The translations under genes were made by a program, and so were the position numbers. DNA of 20,000 nucleotides, taken from IMG/VR virus record IMGVR_UViG_3300033153_006255; one strand, 5' to 3'. Shown piece after piece: positions 9,550 to 20,000 of the stretch (positions are counted from its first letter, which is position 1; each line of letters starts with the position of its first letter). Source of the stretch: an uncultured virus (IMG/VR IMGVR_UViG_3300033153_006255). Lineage: Duplodnaviria; Heunggongvirae; Uroviricota; Caudoviricetes. The notes beneath the pieces are model-generated. The model worked only from the letters and a program-made list of their open reading frames with translations, did no database searches and was not told the DNA's origin.

Positions 9550-10112
9550 TTTATAGCCCACCAATCGCTTGAACCACCATCTGTCTTTGTTCCTAATACC
9601 AGTTTGTTGCCCTTTTTATCCATTTCAATTTCAATATTTTTGCATTTTATAAATTTATCAACAGCATTTACAACCCCATAAGAATTTATATACGTAGGAG
9701 AATGTTTATCTAAACTCACCCAATCTTTTCTATAATCATGTCCACAGAGAACTCCGCCCACTTTAACCTTTTTATACCAAACAATACAATCTCGCAAAAC
9801 ATCTATAAATACATGGCTAGCATCTATGTAGACAAAATCTAAAGAGTTATCATCAAATGATAATGCTGCTTCTAGCGATGGCCGTAAATGCCATTTGACC
9901 CTATCATTAAACATTTGAAGTTTTATTCTAGCATCACCATGATTAGAAATGTTTTTTGCACTATAGTTATCTACTAAATGTAATGTTTTAAGCTCTTTCC
10001 AGTCGTGTAATATTTCACAAGCATGGACACCTTGGTCTACCCCAACTTCTACTCCAACTATATCCTTTCTATCATTGCTAGCTTCTTTTGCTTTCCACAT
10101 TGCTACTCTCAT
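9546..10112 (-). CDS. SAM-dependent methyltransferase (Methyltransf_24-like)
   Basis: Start 10112 (ATGA overlap). 'GVEVGVDQG', 'LVD', 'SLDFVYIDASH', 'W..KVKVGGVLCGHDY', 'GV..AV'. Confidence 0.88.
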   Translation of the reverse strand: MRVAMWKAKEASNDRKDIVGVEVGVDQGVHACEILHDWKELKTLHLVDNYSAKNISNHGDARIKLQMFNDRVKWHLRPSLEAALSFDDNSLDFVYIDASHVFIDVLRDCIVWYKKVKVGGVLCGHDYRKDWVSLDKHSPTYINSYGVVNAVDKFIKCKNIEIEMDKKGNKLVLGTKTDGGSSDWWAIK

Positions 10113-11660: not shown

Positions 11661-12723
11661 TTAACAGCGCCCATATCCTTTTTTGAGTATTTTCTAAGTT
11701 ATAAAATCTTGATGCCTCGATTGACTGATTGACTACCTTACTATAAAAATATTTATCCTTCATAAGGCGCGCAGCTATCTCAACCGCACCGCTAACATAA
11801 TAATCCTTAACAGACGTTTCAGGAAAACACATTCGATTTGGAAAATTAGCTATTGTGCCAACCATGGGAATCCCAAGAGCCGCACAATCCTGCGCCAATC
11901 TTCCAACAACCTTGAACGTATACAAATGTATTGCCATATAAGCATTTGATAAATACTCAATAGCATCTTTGTACGGTAATTCATCTACAAGCTCAAAGTC
12001 TTTTGCACCAACATCGTCTATTATTTTACGTAATGCGTCTTTCTTATTTGGTGTAATATAATACATCCATCCCTTAATCTCGGGAAAAAGTTTTTTCAAG
12101 CGTTTATAGACCTCTAAATTTGTGAGTAAATCCCTATTAAAACTTCCCGGATTATTAATACAGACACATATTCCGTTATGCTTCGTTCTGTCTTCTTTAA
12201 TATGCGGATAATGTAACTGTTCTGGATACATAGACCAACCAGTATACGCACACTTACTATGGTTATCAAGAGCAATTCTAAAGGTATCTACTTCATCAAT
12301 ATTTGTGCACATTATATAATCATATAACCGTAATGATTTCACGAATTTATGAAGAACATCTATTGACCAATATGCAAGTTGATGTGTTTGTATATCTGTT
12401 ACACCTATAACCGTGCCATTGAAATTAGGTTTAATGCGTGCTAATAAATCAAAATATTCTGGATATACCGGGTAAATAAAGTAATCATACTGCCTCAATA
12501 TCTGGCTTAACTGTGCATCAGGTATATCTTTTAAGTCATGATAATAATAAAAGTCTGCGCCATCTTTCTTGAACGTTAAAGGAACGCCAGTTATTCCATT
12601 TACCACCTCTGTCTGCTTTATGCCAAACTCACACTTATATGGTGATAAAAAAGCAATGTTCTTATCTTTAAACTTGTCATAGAAAAATTCTACAAAATTA
12701 CTTTGCTGTTCATGATATTCCAT
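11647..12723 (-). CDS. Divergent GT-B glycosyltransferase-like protein
   Basis: Start reassigned to 12723 (TAATG overlap, GGGGG RBS). C-terminal 'LPY....EYLSNAYMAIHL....VGRLAQDCAALGIPMVG' aligns to the GT4 donor-binding region but lacks the canonical E-x7-E. Confidence 0.7.
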   Translation of the reverse strand: MEYHEQQSNFVEFFYDKFKDKNIAFLSPYKCEFGIKQTEVVNGITGVPLTFKKDGADFYYYHDLKDIPDAQLSQILRQYDYFIYPVYPEYFDLLARIKPNFNGTVIGVTDIQTHQLAYWSIDVLHKFVKSLRLYDYIMCTNIDEVDTFRIALDNHSKCAYTGWSMYPEQLHYPHIKEDRTKHNGICVCINNPGSFNRDLLTNLEVYKRLKKLFPEIKGWMYYITPNKKDALRKIIDDVGAKDFELVDELPYKDAIEYLSNAYMAIHLYTFKVVGRLAQDCAALGIPMVGTIANFPNRMCFPETSVKDYYVSGAVEIAARLMKDKYFYSKVVNQSIEASRFYNLENTQKRIWALLNGEL

Positions 12724-15700
12724 TATTTTTCCCCCATTAATTTTGTCAATGATGTCCAATATTGCTTTGCTACATTCATCCAAGAAAAACTTTTCCTTAC
12801 TATCTCACGTTCTTTTTCTGTAACCACCCTGTAATCTCCTTTAAATATTTTGATAATATCAATTACTGTTTCTTTCTGCGTACCCTCTTTGACATATTCT
12901 ACCAAATCACCATACCAATAACGGAATAACGGTGTATCAAAACATATTGGTCTAGAACCACATAGCAATCCTTCTGCTACCGTCTTTTCAAATCCTTCTA
13001 TACGTCTCATGCCTGACGTATAAGAACATGAGTTGTACATGTACCTTAACTGCTCTACAGATAAAAACTTTTTACATACATGATAAGATTTATTCTTTAT
13101 CATTAAATTTGGACCAGTGTGGAATAGTTTCTTGTTTACATCGTCAGCAGCGGCTATAGATTCATATATACCCTCTGATTGCGGCACTACACCAGTATTT
13201 AGTATTATAAATTCATGTCGGTTGTTTGCTACATTAAAGAAATTTCTGTGATTTGTCCCCCATGGACCCCTAACAAAGTTTGTAAGTTCTGGTAACTCTT
13301 TCTGCAAGTCTAAATGCGAGTATACCATTATAGCTTTTTTAAAATATGGTAAATAATCCTGTATATTCTCCTCTGACCACTCCCCCCTACAATGAAAGTT
13401 AATAATAAAATTCTTGCAACTAATGTTTCTAAAATCAGCAAGTTTTGCTATGTCTATCACTTGTAAGTTGGCTTCAGTAGGTGAATCTATAAATTCAATA
13501 TGTGGAGGAGCATATCTTATAATGTTTTTTCTATTATCATCATTCCACATATTTTTTGAGAAGTTTTTATAATACACTTTAAATTTCTCTGGAGATGACT
13601 CAATCGCTTTTATTGCATCTATTATTTTAATACCTGTATTTTCCCACCTATACTCAGGTACCTTATTCTCACCATTATTTTTAATATTATCTGTATATAC
13701 TTTTTTCATAAACTGTATAAGTGAGTTAAAGTCTACATCAAACCATTTTGAGCTAGCTAAGTATACTGGAGATTTATCTGCTGACACTATTTTACCGGGT
13801 AGACCGATAAAGCGTTTCGATTGAGACGCAAAATCCAAATAACCGCCATAATTAGGAGCTATTACCATCATACCACTTGCCAATGAGTTCAGAATTGGCT
13901 GACAGAATCCCTCTGCATGAGATGCTGTTACAAAACAATCACACGATTTATATAAACCAGATAAATCGGGAAAATCATCATGTATAACTTCAATCTCAGG
14001 TATATTATTTCTTCCACGTACCATACTTTCGCATAATTCAGAGGGGTCTGAATTAACATGTCCTGGTTGAGATTTTAATATTAAACACACATCATCGTCG
14101 CTAGTAAATGTAGCAAGATATGCTTGTATAAGTGTTGGTACATTCTTTCTTACATCACCTAAATTACCGAGCATTAAAAACTTATATTTTTTCTTAGTTT
14201 TTAACGGATAAGGTTTAGCGTTACTATCTACTGTAATGCCATTTGGTATAACGGTTATTTTATCAGCATAAGCACCATTGCTTACAAATAAGTTCTTAAC
14301 GAAATTAGAGTTACACCAGAATGCGTCTACGTCCCTATTAATCATATCTATCCAGCTATCTTTAACTTCAGTAAGCTCCCACGGCGAATATGCTATCTTG
14401 ACACGTGCCATAGATTCCTTTACCCTTTTTACGCATTCGTCTGGCATATGATTAATTATTTCAACGTCGTTATATTTTTCTTTATCAATGAGCTGTTGTA
14501 ATTCTTCATCTATTACATATCCTACTGGTTTATCTATTCTAGGAGTAATAGATACACTATGTTTTAATCGATTTAATCCTTTTGCAAAACCAGCTGTTAC
14601 TATACTAAAACCTGTATTTTCATATATAGCACCCTGTATATTAATCTCCTGTTTGTCTCTAACAAACTTTGGGTGTGGTGTATGCACAGGTAATGAATAA
14701 CTCCTTTTTTTCAAAAGAGTGTCTATGGCTGATTCCCACATATTAAATATATTTGACCAATCAAGGGATAGGGCATACTCCCTCCCTTTTCTAGAAATAT
14801 TTTCTCTAAGTTCTGTAGAACGATATAAAATCTCCAAACCCCGAGCTAAATCACTGGTATCTACGAGAGCCCTTTCTACATTATATTGTCCAGTGATGTA
14901 TGTAGCAACTTTAGCCAACAGGCCCCTACCATCTGCAAAGTGTTCTGGAAACGTAGTATAATTAGTTCCTATACACGGTATACCACATGACATTGCCTCA
15001 ACTGTAGTTAATCCCCAACCCTCACCCTGTGCAGACGACATCTTGATATCACAACAATTATATAACCCAACAAGTTCTTGTAATGGCACACCTTTTTCTA
15101 CAGTTATATTTTGATTAATGAGTATACTTTGTTTTATATCATAACGATTTGTTATACCATTTGGTCCTAAGAGAAATTTATTTTGCTGCATTGAGTGAGT
15201 ATCATTTATATCCATATGAAGATATAAATCACAATTATCAATCTTATGCATTTTTTTAAACTTCGCAAATGCTTCTATTGCTCTTGGTATCTGCTTTCTA
15301 TCTTGATATCTGTCAAAGACCCCTACTACAAATTTCCCTTCAGTAGATGGAAGATACTTTTTACGCAATGCGCTCTTATCAGGGTATGGTCTAAATGTTT
15401 GAGTATTAATACCACGTGGTATCTTTTTTATATATACCCTGGGATTAATGTCGTGACATACTTTCAGCCCATAATCACTCATTACTACTGGTAAATCAGC
15501 TTTTTTAATTAAATCTATCCATTCAACTGGTACCGGTTCACCATCTATCGGAAACTCGTGTATAAATTTAAACTCTTTTCTATTCGGCGAGAAGTAGATA
15601 AAGTCACACATCCATATATCGCCTATTGCTAATACTATATTTGGTTTAAACTCTTCTAAAACTTGTTCAAATGGAGAGTTTTCATAATTACCAGTTGGAT

Positions 15701-15956
15701 TTTCATAATTCCCATTCCATCCAAGTGGATGACCATATGGATTTTTTGCATCGCTAGTTGTATATTGTTTCCAAGGAAATTTCCATTTTATTCTACGTTG
15801 TTTAGCTGAATTCCAAAACCATCCGAACTGTGCAACTTCATACTTTCCACTAAGGTTTAATCTATAACATATCTCTCTTGCTGCAACACCCATACCTGTA
15901 TCTATTGCTGCTGAATCGCTTACTAAGAGTATCTTTGGCTTATTCATATTCCCCAT
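12723..15956 (-). CDS. Tri-modular GT4 (GT-B) glycosyltransferase, 1077 aa
   Basis: Three donor-binding motifs: 'QGEGWGLTTVEAMSCGIP', 'HAEGFCQPILNSLASG', 'RIEGFEKTVAEGLLCG', each followed by a terminal 'W' helix. Start 15956 or 15947. Confidence 0.92.
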   Translation of the reverse strand: MGNMNKPKILLVSDSAAIDTGMGVAAREICYRLNLSGKYEVAQFGWFWNSAKQRRIKWKFPWKQYTTSDAKNPYGHPLGWNGNYENPTGNYENSPFEQVLEEFKPNIVLAIGDIWMCDFIYFSPNRKEFKFIHEFPIDGEPVPVEWIDLIKKADLPVVMSDYGLKVCHDINPRVYIKKIPRGINTQTFRPYPDKSALRKKYLPSTEGKFVVGVFDRYQDRKQIPRAIEAFAKFKKMHKIDNCDLYLHMDINDTHSMQQNKFLLGPNGITNRYDIKQSILINQNITVEKGVPLQELVGLYNCCDIKMSSAQGEGWGLTTVEAMSCGIPCIGTNYTTFPEHFADGRGLLAKVATYITGQYNVERALVDTSDLARGLEILYRSTELRENISRKGREYALSLDWSNIFNMWESAIDTLLKKRSYSLPVHTPHPKFVRDKQEINIQGAIYENTGFSIVTAGFAKGLNRLKHSVSITPRIDKPVGYVIDEELQQLIDKEKYNDVEIINHMPDECVKRVKESMARVKIAYSPWELTEVKDSWIDMINRDVDAFWCNSNFVKNLFVSNGAYADKITVIPNGITVDSNAKPYPLKTKKKYKFLMLGNLGDVRKNVPTLIQAYLATFTSDDDVCLILKSQPGHVNSDPSELCESMVRGRNNIPEIEVIHDDFPDLSGLYKSCDCFVTASHAEGFCQPILNSLASGMMVIAPNYGGYLDFASQSKRFIGLPGKIVSADKSPVYLASSKWFDVDFNSLIQFMKKVYTDNIKNNGENKVPEYRWENTGIKIIDAIKAIESSPEKFKVYYKNFSKNMWNDDNRKNIIRYAPPHIEFIDSPTEANLQVIDIAKLADFRNISCKNFIINFHCRGEWSEENIQDYLPYFKKAIMVYSHLDLQKELPELTNFVRGPWGTNHRNFFNVANNRHEFIILNTGVVPQSEGIYESIAAADDVNKKLFHTGPNLMIKNKSYHVCKKFLSVEQLRYMYNSCSYTSGMRRIEGFEKTVAEGLLCGSRPICFDTPLFRYWYGDLVEYVKEGTQKETVIDIIKIFKGDYRVVTEKEREIVRKSFSWMNVAKQYWTSLTKLMGEK

Positions 15957-16030
15957 TCCCCTATATTGTGAGCCATGAGAGGGATAGCAGGGGAACTACC
16001 CCTCTCCGCACGGGCACTATGCGTAGGCTC
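15956..16030 (-). promoter_or_regulatory. Candidate cis-regulatory structured RNA (three-way junction with loop complementary to the RBS)
   Basis: Minus-strand RNA GAGCC-UA-CGCAU-AGUGCCC-GUGCG-GAGAGGGGUAG-UUCCCCUG-CUAUCCCUCUC-AU-GGCUC. Loop UUCCCCU is complementary to AGGGGAA at 15962-15956. GC-rich within an AT-rich genome. Confidence 0.55.
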
Positions 16031-16035
16031 TGATT

Positions 16036-16473
16036 TTAATTCGACGGTCCTGGTGATAAATATCCTGCAATGGTTACTGTTATTCCACCAGCTACATTGG
16101 TTATAACATCTAAATCTTGGCCTGAAGTTACTACTAATGGACACGATTTATCAAATCCTACTGAGAGTATATCTTTTGCAGCAAAATGCACTTCTTCCAT
16201 TATTGTATTAACAGCTGAAGCATCATCTTGTAGCTTGGCACTTAATGCTCCACTAGCACTAATCACAAGTGTGGTTATATTCATTTGATTGCCTACTACT
16301 GCTTCTTTTACCTGTGTAGCTGAAGTTGCATCAAAAGATTGCATAGTTGCTTGAAAATACTCATTACTAATACCGCTAGAAGCAAGACTGTTATCTACTC
16401 TTAATCTTCCATCTTGCGTTACAAGTGCTGGATAACGATTTCCATCGCCACCTCTAATTATACTTGTACTCAT
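16036..16473 (-). CDS. Small acidic beta-rich protein, probable virion decoration/structural protein
   Basis: 145 aa, Ser/Thr/Ala/Val-rich, strand-like segments ('ITTLVISA', 'ITVTIAGY'); RBS AAGGAG. Confidence 0.6.
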   Translation of the reverse strand: MSTSIIRGGDGNRYPALVTQDGRLRVDNSLASSGISNEYFQATMQSFDATSATQVKEAVVGNQMNITTLVISASGALSAKLQDDASAVNTIMEEVHFAAKDILSVGFDKSCPLVVTSGQDLDVITNVAGGITVTIAGYLSPGPSN

Positions 16474-16485
16474 ATTGTTCTCCTT

Positions 16486-16532
16486 ATTGCGTGAGCAACC
16501 TTCGCGCCGCTGCCCCTATCCGCGAGGAGGTT
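16486..16532 (-). promoter_or_regulatory. GC-rich intergenic stem-loop(s) upstream of an RBS
   Basis: AACCU-CC-UCGCG / CGCGA-AGGUU stem (16532-16497) plus a small overlapping UUGC-UCAC-GCAA hairpin directly before AAGGAG; no U-tract. Confidence 0.35.
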
Positions 16533-16756
16533 TACTTCTTTTCTTCTTTTTTAGCAGGCTCAACCGTTGCTGGTTTAGGCGCTACTTGTTTTTGCCTATT
16601 GGCTATTTCTTGATTCAAAACTTGTAAATTGTTACGTGCTATTTCTATTTTTACGCCCTCATCGTACGCCATAGCCTTTAAGTTATTTACTGATAAATCC
16701 TTTAACGTAACTGATTCTTTTTTTACTGCTGCATCTTTTTTTACTTCGTCTGCCAT
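16532..16756 (-). CDS. Small coiled-coil protein (fibre-associated/chaperone-like)
   Basis: 74 aa; 'LKAMAYD...IARNNLQVLNQEIANRQ' heptad pattern; GGGGG RBS. Confidence 0.7.
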   Translation of the reverse strand: MADEVKKDAAVKKESVTLKDLSVNNLKAMAYDEGVKIEIARNNLQVLNQEIANRQKQVAPKPATVEPAKKEEKK

Positions 16757-16776
16757 TTTTCCCCCACGGTTTTTGG

Positions 16777-17064
16777 TTAAGCTACTATTCCATTATCTTC
16801 TGCTATTTGTGCTTCTTGGTTAGCCTTCATCTGTAAACCCCGTTTGATATCCCTTACTATGTTTCTGCGTATCTTTTCTCTTACCCATTGGGCGTTGGTA
16901 TATTTTGCTATCTGTGGTGCTACCTTTTCATCAGGATTAGGGTCTGGTTTTACCCATTCAGGGTCTGGTATTGTCTCATTATTAGGATATATTTTCAAGA
17001 ACCCCTCTAACGCTACTGCTACTTTTGCATCTGGTATTGTAAACGTTAACACTTGGTCTGCCAT
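16777..17064 (-). CDS. Hypothetical protein downstream of the fibre gene
   Basis: 95 aa, RBS AAAGGAG, Pro/Asp-rich loop 'IPDPEWVKPDPNPD'. Confidence 0.75.
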   Translation of the reverse strand: MADQVLTFTIPDAKVAVALEGFLKIYPNNETIPDPEWVKPDPNPDEKVAPQIAKYTNAQWVREKIRRNIVRDIKRGLQMKANQEAQIAEDNGIVA

Positions 17065-17085
17065 TTTTTCTCCTTTAGTTTTTAT

Positions 17086-17196
17086 TTATCTTCTTCTCCC
17101 CCTACCAATCTTCCTTGTAGTTGAACATCCGCCCCTACCTCTATTTGCCCTGCGCCCTCTACCGCTACCATTTCTTTTTGGAATTCCTCTTGCCAT
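17086..17196 (-). CDS. 36-aa Arg/Gly-rich protamine-like peptide
   Basis: Not in ORF track. MARGIPKRNGSGRGRRANRGRGGCSTTRKIGRGRRR*; strong RBS AAAAGGAGG; TGATG overlap with the upstream ORF. Confidence 0.75.
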   Translation of the reverse strand: MARGIPKRNGSGRGRRANRGRGGCSTTRKIGRGRRR

Positions 17197-17327
17197 CACT
17201 TCTTCCTCCTTTTAAGTTCTTTTGCAATATCACTACTACATCTTTCTATATTAACGCAAGTCCAACCCTTTGGTATGAAAGCTGTCTTGAACTCACAGTT
17301 ACTTCGGCTTTGTATTGTTTCTTTCAT
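17196..17327 (-). CDS. 43-aa hypothetical protein
   Basis: Not in ORF track. MKETIQSRSNCEFKTAFIPKGWTCVNIERCSSDIAKELKRRKK*; tandem AGGAGC-AGGAGC RBS; its stop overlaps the next ATG. Confidence 0.55.
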   Translation of the reverse strand: MKETIQSRSNCEFKTAFIPKGWTCVNIERCSSDIAKELKRRKK

Positions 17328-17372
17328 TATGCTCCTGCTCCTGTTTTCCCTACTTTACCATAACGTTGCTTC

Positions 17373-20000
17373 TTAGCTTGCTACACCTAACTTATTTGAA
17401 GTGTAATTAAAACAAACTCCGTGCAGTTCTGCTGTGTCTGTTAAATCATCACTTCCATCAGCTCCTAATCTTTTTAATCTACAGTGAACACAAATATCAG
17501 TCGCATCTGGAACATCTATTCCTGTAATTTCTGCAACAATCAATCCATTTGCCTGTGCTATTGCATTGGAATTAACTGTTAAAGTCTCTTGTGCTGCAGC
17601 AGTTGTATCTTCTCCGGAAGCCATCCAAAGATATTCAAGTTGCCAAACAACTGTTTCATCTGTTGCTGTTGTATTTGTAGACCATCCAATTTTTAATGTT
17701 GGAGCTACGCTTCTATCCATATCTTGAGGCACTTCAGCAAGAAAAACAATAGTATCATCTGTTCCATCAGAAAAACTCCATGCTCCTGATATTCCATGGT
17801 CTATATAATCAGCTGGTTTGGTTCCCGGAGCCTTTAATACTTCAAAAGGAAGCCATAAAGATTTTTTAACTCTCGCTGTTCCGTGTAGGTTTATCTCTCC
17901 ATCTGATTTTATTTCTGTGTAGTTTGTAGTTCCACCATCTCCCGCTTTAACTGTATTGTCAAAAGTATAAGCATCAAAATTAGTAAAGTGTATCTCATCA
18001 TTAGCGGTTACATTCTCGGAGTTGAATATCCAATCTTCGCCGTCAAAGTAGGTTGAAACATCTTTCCCTGTGCCTAAAGATAAGGGCATATCATCTGCTT
18101 TAAGATGCAAACCACCATCTGCTTGCTGAAGCCTGAAAGTATCAGTAGCAATATCAAAATCAAGATATGCATTAACAGAATTGTCTGTGTCAGCAAAATA
18201 CAACTGCGGAGCAGTATCATTCAAAATATATAATCTATCATATACACCGCCCAAACCAATTCCGAAGTTATCATTGAAATTCATCATAACCATACTAATC
18301 ATTCCGCCAAGAAGCTTATACTCAAATTCCACATTGGCAGTTGGAACAGCAGAGTTTGGTATGATTTTAACTCCACCTGTAAATTCGTGAAGTCCTGATG
18401 AAAAATATTCTAAATTAGTCCCGCCGAATTGGAGATAACTATCAGTTGCACCTGCTGCACCGAGAGCAAGTTTTTGGTCATCATTGGGCATAACAACATC
18501 ATAAGTATTTGCTCTATCAAATATCATTATAGTAGGAGAGCCTGTCACACTTGATGTTCCTGTCAATTTTAGTAATTCACTATCTCCTTCGTCAATTCCC
18601 ATAGAATATTTTGTAGAAGTTTCAGACATCCAAGATAAAACAGCATCTCCAGAGGCGTGAAGATTATTTATTGCAAATCTAAAATCATCTGCTTGGTTAC
18701 CTTCAAAAACAAATAACTCGCCATTATTCTCGCTTCTTCTATACATACTAATATCTCTTACACTTGCTCCATCTCCCCATTCAAACTCACCACTTGCTCT
18801 TAAAACAAATCTATCATATGTATCGGCATTTACACCTCCACCAAATAAAGAGTGAGATGAAGAATCACCATATAATCTAAAGAACTCTCTGCCTGGGTTT
18901 GCACCAGAACCCTCAAACTTCATAAATCCTGATATATAACCACCACCAGCATCAAACTCTGTGCCTGAGTGTTCAGTGGTTGCACCTGTTCTATCTGAGA
19001 GCTTTATTATGTTTCCTTTTTGGTTATCGGCATTATATGCAGGCGATAGGTCTAATAGTCCTGTTGTATCTGAACCGATTGTAACTGTGCCTGTTGTAGT
19101 AAGGTCACCGCCACAATACCAATTATTACCCGCATCATATATTCCCCACTTAGTTGTTCCTACTGTAAGGGCATCTATTTTAAGTGCCGTAGCGGTGTCT
19201 ACGGTCATATTGCAAGTGCCTGACATTACACCTAAGTGTGCCCAGTTAAGGTCAGTAACTGTGCCTGTTGCACCTGCGTCAAATTCAACCCTGTTAAATT
19301 GAACATTTACATCAGAATAAGTTGCATCTGCTGCATCGTGGAAATTCACTCTATTTCTTAATGCTGCACCTTTTCCCGATAAGTTTTTATTTGAGCGAAT
19401 ATTTAATAAATTATTAAAAGAGCCATATTCTTGTGCCCTGTCTGCTGTTAAACCATATATGTATAATTGGTTTGCCATAGTATAGATGTCTGTGGCTGGA
19501 TTTTGTGAGTTCCATATCAAATTATTAACCTGCTGTCTTAAATAAGTTGCTCCAAAACCCTTGCCATCATTATCTATTCCTTCGGCTGTGTCTAAGATAT
19601 GAAATGAATCCTTAACTAATGCTGTATTACCACTATCATCTAAGTCTATTTGAAAATATGTTACTTCATCTCCAAAACCAAATTTAATTTTTCTTAGGGT
19701 TGCTCCTGAACTTTCTTTCTCGCCGATAAAAAGGCTTGTTGGGCCTGTGCCTGAGCCTACGTGGTCTGTCTTAATGTATGCACTTGCCCCATCTATATCC
19801 ATTATAAATCTTCCACCATTTGAAATGTCTGAATCATTACGAATTTGAAAACCTGCTTTGTCTTCGGTTCCACTTGGCATAACAAAGAAGTTCATAACAT
19901 TATTTCCACTCTCGGGTTGTATAAATAGTCTTGAATAAATGCTGGCAACATCACCATCTATAAATGGTCTTCCTGCCTCTGTGCCTAAATAAATACCACT
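17373..20000 (-). CDS. Large acidic Gly/Thr/Asp-rich fibre/spike-like virion protein (5' end outside window)
   Basis: The frame stays open from 19895 to 20000 (SGIYLGTEAGRPF...NNVM), so the protein is at least 875 aa. Beta-turn-rich; repeated 'DD..L.LG...D...F.G' units; distinct C-terminal beta-sandwich-like domain from 'GDGGTTNY'. Confidence 0.72.
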   Translation of the reverse strand, partial: SGIYLGTEAGRPFIDGDVASIYSRLFIQPESGNNVMNFFVMPSGTEDKAGFQIRNDSDISNGGRFIMDIDGASAYIKTDHVGSGTGPTSLFIGEKESSGATLRKIKFGFGDEVTYFQIDLDDSGNTALVKDSFHILDTAEGIDNDGKGFGATYLRQQVNNLIWNSQNPATDIYTMANQLYIYGLTADRAQEYGSFNNLLNIRSNKNLSGKGAALRNRVNFHDAADATYSDVNVQFNRVEFDAGATGTVTDLNWAHLGVMSGTCNMTVDTATALKIDALTVGTTKWGIYDAGNNWYCGGDLTTTGTVTIGSDTTGLLDLSPAYNADNQKGNIIKLSDRTGATTEHSGTEFDAGGGYISGFMKFEGSGANPGREFFRLYGDSSSHSLFGGGVNADTYDRFVLRASGEFEWGDGASVRDISMYRRSENNGELFVFEGNQADDFRFAINNLHASGDAVLSWMSETSTKYSMGIDEGDSELLKLTGTSSVTGSPTIMIFDRANTYDVVMPNDDQKLALGAAGATDSYLQFGGTNLEYFSSGLHEFTGGVKIIPNSAVPTANVEFEYKLLGGMISMVMMNFNDNFGIGLGGVYDRLYILNDTAPQLYFADTDNSVNAYLDFDIATDTFRLQQADGGLHLKADDMPLSLGTGKDVSTYFDGEDWIFNSENVTANDEIHFTNFDAYTFDNTVKAGDGGTTNYTEIKSDGEINLHGTARVKKSLWLPFEVLKAPGTKPADYIDHGISGAWSFSDGTDDTIVFLAEVPQDMDRSVAPTLKIGWSTNTTATDETVVWQLEYLWMASGEDTTAAAQETLTVNSNAIAQANGLIVAEITGIDVPDATDICVHCRLKRLGADGSDDLTDTAELHGVCFNYTSNKLGVAS

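Follow-up and report, generated by a model that had tools for sequence, protein, structure and literature searches.

A covariation-supported three-way junction RNA in the leader of a glycosyltransferase operon of uncultured tailed phages

A GC-rich gap between two genes of an uncultured tailed phage codes for an RNA with a three-armed fold that is real and conserved in evolution. The gap was found in a stretch of 20,000 nucleotides (IMG/VR record IMGVR_UViG_3300033153_006255; hereafter the window), and the same fold precedes a homologous double-GT4 glycosyltransferase (GT) gene in six distinct uncultured-phage sequences (the window and loci L002, L008, L013, L014 and L015). As judged from sequence comparison, compensatory changes on the mRNA strand have preserved a rigid three-way junction some 61 nt long. 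The best reading of the element is that of a new cis-acting leader RNA, absent from Rfam, which probably tunes the amount of the downstream enzymes; more tentatively, it can be viewed as a lineage-specific translational attenuator or insulator of the glycosylation operon. This compact motif heads a large virion-associated glycosylation/methylation cluster and is a candidate for its translational control. To our knowledge, structured cis-regulatory RNAs in phage late operons have barely been catalogued, and the means by which the ratio of enzymes to structural proteins is controlled on one long phage transcript are mostly unknown.

The mRNA strand is the minus strand of the window. The leader gap of 79 nt (16035-15957) is bordered by the stop codon TAA (16038-16036) of a 145-aa gene and by the first ATG of the GT gene (15956). 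The whole element (61 nt, 15970..16030, minus strand) is closed by helix P1, whose 5′ strand GAGCC (16026..16030) pairs with the 3′ strand GGCUC (15970..15974). The P2 hairpin CGCAU-AGUGCCC-GUGCG (16007..16023) is formed by 16023-16019 with 16011-16007 and includes one U.G pair, and the P3 hairpin (15977..16006) has an 11-bp stem in which a purine-rich 5′ arm (16006-15996, GAGAGGGGUAG) pairs, with one G.U, with a pyrimidine-rich 3′ arm (15987-15977, CUAUCCCUCUC). The C-rich loop of P3, UUCCCCUG (15995-15988), is the complement of (U)AGGGGAA at 15963/15962-15956. The initial annotation had placed the gap, the three helices, the loop and its complement correctly, and RNAfold of the minus strand returns the same junction as both MFE and centroid (-33.8 kcal/mol); it is also matched by the covariance models R1 and R2. 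The proposal that the sense RNA is the folded species agrees with the lower stability of the plus strand (-25.2 kcal/mol, z -0.17). Taken by itself the window fold could be due to chance (z -1.74; among 200 dinucleotide shuffles 11 were at least as stable), so the case for its reality is made by the comparison of the six distinct sequences.

The fold, proposed from a single sequence, is borne out by its homologous leaders. These were compared in a model-fitted alignment (A9), used in place of the MAFFT alignments A3-A5, whose stems were mis-registered; it covers the six sequences, leaving aside the contigs of the ENA/Logan/NCBI homologues P0004-P0009, and as it leans toward structure, independent single-sequence folds serve as the control for bias. 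Of the 123 cells of A9, 98.4% are paired, and both sides are changed in 13 of the 21 pairs, a combination matched by none of 500 shuffles, while slid controls gave at most 4 pairs and at most 50.5% paired. RNAalifold found compensatory changes in 14 of 24 pairs. Nine of the ten pairs of the main P3 helix are changed on both sides in some sequence, and P1 has compensatory changes of C-G to U-A (L013) and of A-U to G-C (L008). Eleven cells of A9 are G-U wobbles, which would be A-C mismatches if read on the opposite strand, again indicating that the sense strand is the folded one. Folded singly, each of the five other sequences gives the three-way junction as its MFE structure, and in a context of -60/+90 nt the junction stays the MFE in all six. 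The element is 86% identical to those of L002 and L015, while identity in the GT coding sequence beside it is 71-73%. The compensatory changes show that selection acts on RNA pairing and not on DNA identity alone.

The element belongs to no class that we could name, as had been suspected at the outset. The covariance models of Rfam 15 gave no match over the whole window at the gathering score and two noise matches, both away from the element, between 15500 and 16500 at E<=10; the five other loci gave one noise match at E<=5, likewise away from it. A known RNA family was rejected, there being no match at or near the gathering score. An intrinsic (Rho-independent) terminator had already been discounted and is rejected here for want of a U-tract, the bases after the junction reading ACAAUAUAGGGG, and because a simple terminator scan did not flag it; the U-tract is absent 3′ of the element in five of the six sequences, and L008 has just UUUAAGU. 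ARAGORN found no genes in the window that would make the element tRNA- or tmRNA-like, no second site at <=3 mismatches was found for a phage-type repeated promoter around CACAAUAUAGGGGAAU, and a protein-coding or read-through extension was rejected since indels among the homologues are not multiples of three (by inspection) and since the gap stands in one frame with respect to the GT gene in the window and in another in L002. A dispersed repeat (REP/MITE-like) or repeated processing site, named in the initial annotation as what could overturn its reading, was rejected as well: model R2 finds exactly one copy each in G001 (36.6 kb), G002 (24 kb) and G003 (40 kb), all of them fragments (CheckV 21-48%), and an element present once per phage record is not dispersed.

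Its distribution is narrow. In GenBank phages blastn and tblastn gave no match. Protein queries of IMG/VR gave five contigs (one query none, two queries the same five), and DNA-pattern searches gave the contig of L002 and three matches in GC-rich non-homologous sequence, in which the rest of the fold is absent and which were judged by inspection to be chance. One JGI metagenome scan gave six loci and the GTDB genomes one, with an element identical to that of L013. One relative has been binned with a Candidatus Saccharibacteria MAG, and in the order of G007, the one MAG that carries the element, model R2 matched 1 of 151 genomes, in G007's own phage-like contig, and none of the 150 others. The element is missing at three related GT loci (L007, L009 and L016), a count made among loci other than L006 and L012, whose contigs end at or inside the GT gene. 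Being carried only by phage GT loci, it does not recur before non-homologous genes that share a pathway.

Upstream of the element lies the gene for the 145-aa protein (16036..16473, minus strand), a variable-length structural, fibre-like product whose TAA stops 5 nt before P1. The protein has no Pfam and no PHROG match, and its N-terminus MSxxxIRGGDGNRYPALV is common to a 345-aa protein in L002 and a 553-aa protein in L014 at the same position. Downstream the first gene of the glycosylation cluster (12723..15947, minus strand; alternative start ATG 15956) encodes about 1074 aa with two GT4 domains (Pfam Glycos_transf_1, 8.3e-28; PHROG 2170, 1.2e-60) and has 33 full-length homologues; the cluster beyond it includes SAM-dependent methyltransferases and glycosyltransferases (Pfam). 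The link of the fold to the start of this operon is upheld by its spacing, an ORF start lying 10-33 nt 3′ of the element in all six sequences. At the other end the element begins 5-30 nt past the upstream stop codon in the five loci that show the upstream gene, and in four of the five that gene is of the same fibre-like family. Synteny breaks just upstream, the C-terminal part of the fibre-like gene being variable (protein of 145 to 553 aa). L013 keeps the element despite a different upstream gene (61-aa coiled-coil protein). In L008 the downstream ORF has been swapped to an 86-aa ORF and the element persists; in L015 the element, still intact, has been taken over by an HNH endonuclease gene along with the Shine-Dalgarno sequence (SD) and the opening GT-like codons (MGKPKILI), a natural experiment in which a homing gene hijacked both the element and the ribosome-binding site.

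Within the element the apical loops and the P2 stem are best conserved, the P3 stem being free to covary. The P2 loop core GUGCCC is invariant in all six sequences and the P2 hairpin is the most sequence-conserved part; the P3 loop is CCCCUG-like, with CCCU kept in all six. Unpaired conserved bases are confined to these two loops, and the junction strands, of 0-5 nt, vary among the sequences.

The P3 loop has a candidate partner in the G-rich ribosome-binding region AUAGGGGAAUGGGGAAU (15948..15964, minus strand), in which GGGGAAU is tandemly duplicated (15961-15955 and 15954-15948). The initial annotation had placed there a ribosome-binding site for the first ATG, sequestered by the loop in a pseudoknot. 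The complementarity and the G-rich site stand; the likelier start codon is the second ATG, 15947, which is preferred by gene callers (P0002, 1074 aa) and better spaced from the SD. The pseudoknot fares unevenly. RNAduplex gives -12.1 kcal/mol for the window loop against the G-rich region, a value equalled by 1.7% of shuffles, and the loop pairs strongly with the downstream SD region in four of the six sequences (-12.1, -12.0, -15.3 and -10.0 kcal/mol); the pairing is weak in L015 (-7.6 kcal/mol, linker of 33 nt) and in L008 (-3.4 kcal/mol), where the SD is AAAGGA. The P2 loop pairs weakly with the SD region (-1.8 to -6.0 kcal/mol). The loop C-run and the SD G-run are both nearly invariant, and the sole P3-loop change, U to C (window versus L002, L014 and L015), faces an unchanged A, so that the pseudoknot is without covariation. 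SDs of GGGG type occur at 6 of 44 gene starts of the window phage, five of them besides the GT gene, and G-run SDs precede GT genes without an adjacent element in L016 and at the GT of L015; G-run SDs being ordinary here, part of the complementarity is to be expected for any C-rich loop. By geometric estimate the 4 nt between P1 and the G-run in L013 seem too short for the P3 loop to reach unless P1 opens. Nested folds leave the SD/AUG region just 35-53% paired and sequester the SD inconsistently among the sequences, so sequestration would depend on the loop-tail pseudoknot. Outer helices pairing the 5′ flank with the SD/AUG, present in L013 and L014 only, were treated as chance. A loop-SD pseudoknot is thus possible but unproven.

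The reading that we tentatively favour starts from the place of the element, in the intercistronic leader that separates the late structural genes of these uncultured tailed phages from their virion-associated glycosyltransferase/methyltransferase operon. The junction would block re-initiation by ribosomes terminating on the upstream structural gene. The C-rich P3 loop, possibly with the P2 loop, may serve as a built-in anti-Shine-Dalgarno, which would pair with the G-run of the ribosome-binding site as a loop-to-tail pseudoknot. Catalytic enzymes would then be made at a lower, fixed level relative to the structural proteins of the same transcript. A parallel is offered by RsaE/RoxS, sRNAs of Firmicutes whose C-rich loops, as the relevant portion of PMC6158497 describes them, pair with G-rich SDs and block initiation, each RNA carrying two C-rich loop motifs, as the element does. 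According to the same portion of that article they act in trans and are separately transcribed with their own terminator (PMC6158497), whereas the element lies within a polycistronic mRNA beside its presumed target; it shares no sequence homology with them. Should the loops prove to be an anti-SD, the element would be a cis counterpart of RsaE-type C-rich sRNAs.

Conservation of the apical loops and P2 stem beside a covarying P3 is also the pattern of phage translational operators, of which the MS2/PP7 coat and T4 RegA operators are examples. The element could accordingly be a protein-binding operator, in which the junction would fix the angle between two loops, GUGCCC of P2 and the C-rich one of P3, for binding by a putative phage or host RNA-binding protein that represses or activates translation; we hold this doubtful, though it deserves consideration. 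Survival of the element through the downstream ORF swaps of L015 (HNH) and L008 (86-aa ORF) speaks for it. The bound protein, which we name with the same reserve, could be an operon product acting on its own leader or a nearby small basic DUF5320-type protein: L002 has a small Arg/Gly-rich DUF5320 protein (Pfam 2e-7) and the window a similar 36-aa ORF, but co-occurrence of such a partner rests on three element-bearing records, and RNA-RNA pairing accounts for the C-rich loops equally well.

The ratio of enzymes to structural proteins might instead be set by differential decay or by U-tract-independent termination rather than by translation. The junction would then be a boundary at which mRNA is processed or stabilised or transcription partly terminates, marking the 3′ end of an abundant structural-gene message or shielding the 5′ end of the one for the GT, which we consider unlikely. 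Its start 5-30 nt past the upstream stop in the five visible loci and the fibre-like family upstream in four of them fit such a role, as does the presence in the same phages of strong GC-rich hairpins after the capsid gene; these share with the element a GC-rich, stable, noncoding nature and a place right after a structural-gene stop in an AT-rich genome. However, the post-capsid hairpins are single and their loops are not conserved, whereas the element is branched, has an invariant motif in each of its two loops and keeps its link to the start codon downstream, features in excess of what a stabiliser or terminator needs. The lack of a U-tract in five of six sequences, the silence of the terminator scan at the junction and the different upstream gene of L013 also count against a boundary element. 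The post-capsid hairpin is followed by a U-tract in L008 and not in G001 or L002, and another strong GC-rich hairpin lies 3′ of a 327-aa gene.

A bolder reading, to which we give little credence, makes the element a new phage RNA switch, in which the two C-rich loops of the rigid junction would clamp the ribosome-binding site with its twice-repeated GGGGAAU (as a loop-tail pseudoknot or even a C+.G-C triplex) and be released or locked by a signal (SAM/SAH, NDP-sugar, pH or a phage protein), timing virion glycosylation in phages possibly infecting Saccharibacteria (CPR).

Ligand sensing was the least supported part of the initial annotation, and a metabolite riboswitch, in which SAM, SAH or an NDP-sugar would stabilise the loop-SD pseudoknot and switch translation of the operon, is in our view very unlikely. 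Like riboswitches in general, the element is a conserved structure backed by covariation in a 5′ leader; it has conserved unpaired nucleotides, precedes genes for SAM-dependent methyltransferases and glycosyltransferases, could form an SD pseudoknot in four of six sequences and matches no known class. SAM-II and preQ1-II are likewise short leaders by the start codon with a hairpin loop complementary to the ribosome-binding site, and the genes downstream of the element use SAM. Those classes have an H-type pseudoknot core, whereas the element is a closed three-way junction with pseudoknot pairing unconserved in two of six. The tiny, variable junction strands argue against a ligand pocket in the junction, leaving no obvious one, even if a pocket within the loop-SD pseudoknot may be conceived. 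The element is moreover restricted to phage GT loci, was not found in the 150 other genomes of the MAG's order and is absent from three related operons (L007, L009 and L016). Ligand binding, if it occurred, would define a new riboswitch class.

The element also heads a long co-directional operon of sugar-modifying genes, and bacterial operons of this sugar type use antitermination (EAR, ops/RfaH, LoaP). A put/EAR-like processive antitermination RNA, whose nascent two-hairpin fold would bind RNA polymerase and allow read-through of the enzyme operon of about 11 kb, nevertheless has a very slight chance of being correct. The put RNA of HK022, as the portion of PMC9378689 concerned with it states, has about 70 nt and two stem-loops and acts in cis without a protein factor; the likeness of the element, a phage cis RNA of about 60-70 nt that opens a long transcription unit with two stem-loops, is architectural only (PMC9378689). 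The put fold is given there as having bulged stems and a triplex, with no closing helix such as P1, and as acting on RNA polymerase (PMC9378689). No sequence or covariance-model similarity to put or other Rfam antitermination RNAs was found, the terminator scan found no terminators inside the operon, and the conserved spacing of the element is to the start codon, which antitermination does not need.

Just as improbable are an excised trans-acting small RNA, whose two RsaE-like C-rich motifs would hit other G-rich SDs (GGGG SDs precede five other phage genes) but for which no own promoter or terminator was found, and a functionless recombination linker for fibre cassettes, suggested by the synteny break at the fibre-like gene but opposed by the compensatory changes, which point to selection on RNA pairing; the fixed position beside the start codon speaks against both.

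A second conserved structured leader was noticed outside the main element, before the fibre-like gene (16474..16531, minus strand). Its mean column identity over the window, L014 and L002 is 81%, and its hairpin B is compensatory, with UUGC/GCAA, UUAC/GUAA and UUAU/GUAA pairs.

A search for homologous leaders confirmed that the 61-nt three-way-junction RNA (window 16030-15970, minus strand) preceding the glycosyltransferase (GT) operon is a conserved, covarying RNA motif, found across six distinct sequences. It lies in a 79-nt gap between a 145-aa gene and the first GT gene (1074/1077 aa, double-GT4) on the minus strand, which carries every gene of the window, and the GC content of this gap is 54% vs 27-40% in nearby windows. 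The window comes from a tailed phage whose nearest record is IMG/VR G001 (36.6 kb, CheckV 21%). In the phage transcription order the large terminase, portal, protease and major head protein genes come first, followed by a large structural gene (~1100 aa), the 95-, 74- and 145-aa genes, the run of glycosyltransferase and SAM-methyltransferase genes (~15947 down to ~5139, minus strand) and further structural genes including that of the head-tail adaptor. Within 16040-20000 G001 is 15 bases longer than the window, the site being probably inside the ~1100-aa structural gene.

The helices P1, P2 and P3, the wobble pairs, the P3 loop and the purine run complementary to it are all where the initial annotation had placed them. 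The junction is both the minimum free energy (MFE) and the centroid structure of the mRNA strand (-33.8 kcal/mol; -25.2 kcal/mol for the opposite strand). As a single-sequence fold it is not statistically remarkable (z -1.74; 11 of 200 shuffles are at least as stable). The same three-helix topology is the MFE structure of each homologous sequence folded alone and is retained in all six with 60 nt of upstream and 90 nt of downstream context.

Metagenomes contain 33 full-length homologues of the GT protein (40-74% identity), and DNA from 11 GT loci was compared. In L002, the closest locus, the element is visible by eye, with an A-U pair of P3 replaced by G-C and a U.G pair of P2 by U-A; L013 and L014 keep the same loops on much more diverged stems. 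A two-sequence covariance model (window plus L002) returned the window itself (16031-15969, 93.7 bits), L002 (4043-4104, 91.2 bits), L015 (1-63, 66.6 bits), L014 (2400-2462, 58.0 bits), L013 (608-671, 22.7 bits) and L008 (2141-2202, 13.5 bits, E 0.17-0.35). The six-sequence model R2 lifts L008 to 48.5 bits (E 1.7e-7), a partly circular score as L008 is among the R2 source sequences. The contig L024 (CAZTRD010000020.1, 18.5 kb), which includes the GT operon and is binned in a Candidatus Saccharibacteria MAG, matches L013 base for base in the element and for this reason was left out of the independent count; this binning is either a lead on the host or an artefact. The element is absent from L007, L009 and L016, which have enough upstream sequence to judge, while L006 and L012 could not be scored, their contigs ending at or inside the GT gene. 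At the corresponding position L007 (2429-2500) has a sigma-70-like promoter (TTGACA, 17 nt, TATACT) and then a 9-codon upstream ORF that overlaps the GT gene at its GTG start; the means of uncoupling the enzyme operon from the structural genes thus differs among relatives.

In the model-fitted alignment standard pairs occupy 98.4% of 123 cells and 13 of 21 pairs are changed on both sides. None of 500 shuffles reached any of five measures, and sliding the 3′ partners by 1-3 columns left at most 4 both-side pairs and at most 50.5% pairing. This alignment is biased toward the model, and the independent single-sequence folds serve as the check on it; RNAalifold scored 14 of 24 pairs as compensatory. 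The alignment holds 11 G-U cells and no A-C cells except two probable misalignments, so the structured strand is the mRNA sense strand, as had been proposed from the window alone. Identity of the element to L002 and L015 is 86%, vs 71-73% over the 5′-most 900 nt of the GT gene.

No Rfam family matched, in line with the initial annotation, which had recognized no known class and, from the lack of a U-tract 3′ of the fold, had rightly set aside an intrinsic terminator. The identities of tRNA/tmRNA and repeated phage promoter were rejected, as was coding sequence, any frame being broken by indels in the homologues. A dispersed repeat was also rejected: each of three records with the element has a single copy, and none turned up in 150 further genomes from the order to which the MAG G007 belongs. 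The motif is not described in the literature searched on cis-regulatory or covarying RNA motifs of phage glycosyltransferases, on glycosyltransferases of Saccharibacteria phages or on bacteriophage capsid glycosylation and methyltransferases, nor is it named in the retrieved passages of Weinberg et al. 2017 (PMC5737381).

The element starts 5-30 nt past the upstream stop codon in the five loci that show the upstream gene, and in all six sequences it ends 10-33 nt ahead of a start codon. The upstream gene is fibre-like, of variable length (145, 345, 553 and 205 aa) with a common N-terminus, in four of the five loci where it is visible, and is a 61-aa coiled-coil gene in L013. Directly downstream lies the GT gene in four of the six; an 86-aa ORF intervenes in L008 and a 249-aa HNH endonuclease gene (Pfam HNH_2) in L015. 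The first residues of this HNH protein, MGKPKILI, copy the GT N-terminus; the homing-endonuclease gene (L015 97-846) sits within the first GT codons, with the KPKIL N-terminus duplicated, and evidently took over the element together with the ribosome-binding site and the initial codons. Thus the element, placed at operon-head start codons, travels with the translation-initiation region. The end of an HNH-like gene also lies directly upstream of the GT gene in L006.

P1 has 5-7 bp. P2 (4-6 bp) displays a loop of 7-8 nt whose core, GUGCCC, is invariant in all six. P3 (8-12 bp), rich in purines in its 5′ arm and in pyrimidines in its 3′ arm, is free to vary in stem sequence (9 of 10 main-helix pairs changed on both sides). 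Its loop keeps a C-run: UUCCCCUG in the window, UCCCCCUG in L002, L014 and L015, CCCCCU inside a longer loop in L013 and ACCCUGA in L008. The junction strands are short (0-2, 0-5 and 0-2 nt) and unconserved, which places the information in the two displayed C-rich loops and not in a junction pocket.

The P3 loop had been proposed to form a pseudoknot with the Shine-Dalgarno (SD) sequence of the GT gene. RNAduplex energies of the loop against the RNA between P1 and the start codon, each given with the percentage of shuffled downstream sequences doing as well, were -12.1 kcal/mol (1.7%) for the window, -12.0 (1.4%) for L014, -15.3 (1.2%) for L013, where four A-U pairs atop P3 have to be opened, -10.0 (8.3%) for L002, -7.6 (8.5%) for L015 and -3.4 (43%) for L008; the six sequences are related, so these values lack independence. 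Further observations also lower the weight of the energies. The U to C change in the loop has no compensation in the SD. At 6 of 44 gene starts the phage has a GGGG-type site, and a G-run lies ahead of GT genes with no adjacent element in L016 and behind the HNH insert of L015. In L013 only 4 nt separate P1 from the G-run. The predicted pairing is therefore plausible in most members, is not universal and gains no support from covariation. GGGGAAU occurs twice in the window, a duplication of the G-rich site that L002, L014 and L015 show in part.

We rate the element as a cis-regulatory leader RNA, a known kind, and tentatively favor a translational attenuator or insulator that acts constitutively. 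Re-initiation by ribosomes coming off the upstream structural gene would be blocked by the stable junction, and the C-rich loop or loops would vie with the 16S anti-SD for binding to the G-run, a cis equivalent of the C-rich motifs of RsaE/RoxS (PMC6158497). The invariant P2 loop prompts another, rather unlikely reading, that of a protein-binding operator. Somewhat less likely still is an mRNA boundary, stability or partial-termination element, suggested by the plain GC-rich hairpins also placed after the capsid gene in these phages. A true riboswitch, as in the initial annotation, finds only partial support, from the conserved, covarying leader, and is improbable with the information in apical loops and no junction pocket. 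A put-like antitermination RNA (PMC9378689) and a trans-acting sRNA or mere recombination linker are each similarly improbable.

A second conserved structured leader precedes the fibre-like gene (window 16531-16474, minus strand; L002 2940-3000; L014 ~675-729), with 81% column identity among the three sequences. From 5′ to 3′ it comprises an anti-SD-like CUCCU, hairpin A, whose loop is G-rich (GGGG), hairpin B, which carries compensatory changes (UUGC/GCAA, UUAC/GUAA, UUAU/GUAA), and the SD AAGGAG; CUCCU is paired with the SD in the MFE structures of the window and L014. A long-range contact between its G-rich loop and the complementary C-rich P3 loop of the GT leader is a speculative possibility. 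A strong GC-rich hairpin directly follows the major head protein gene (L003, a locus within G001, 9561-9589; L002 ~1540-1571; L008 ~902-935). Its position is conserved, G001 and L002 differ in it by compensatory changes, and the folding z is -3.7 to -4.6; in L008 the U-tract behind it gives it the look of a terminator or stabilizer. A similar hairpin follows a 327-aa gene (L004, about G001 33928-33954). Small Arg/Gly-rich ORFs occur at window ~17196-17086 (minus strand) and L002 1590-1736; the latter matches Pfam DUF5320 (2e-7, 32.5 bits), the 36-aa window ORF (MARGIPKRNGSGRGRR...) is similar to it by eye, and both may encode nucleic-acid-binding peptides of the virion module. The large terminase of L003 (2605-5001, 798 aa) has extra PHROG matches of a kind common among intein-bearing genes (thymidylate synthase, RNR, PhoH), and intein/LAGLIDADG Pfam domains occur in several GT homologues of 1400-1750 aa (P0010, P0011, P0022 and P0035); this phage group seems rich in mobile elements.
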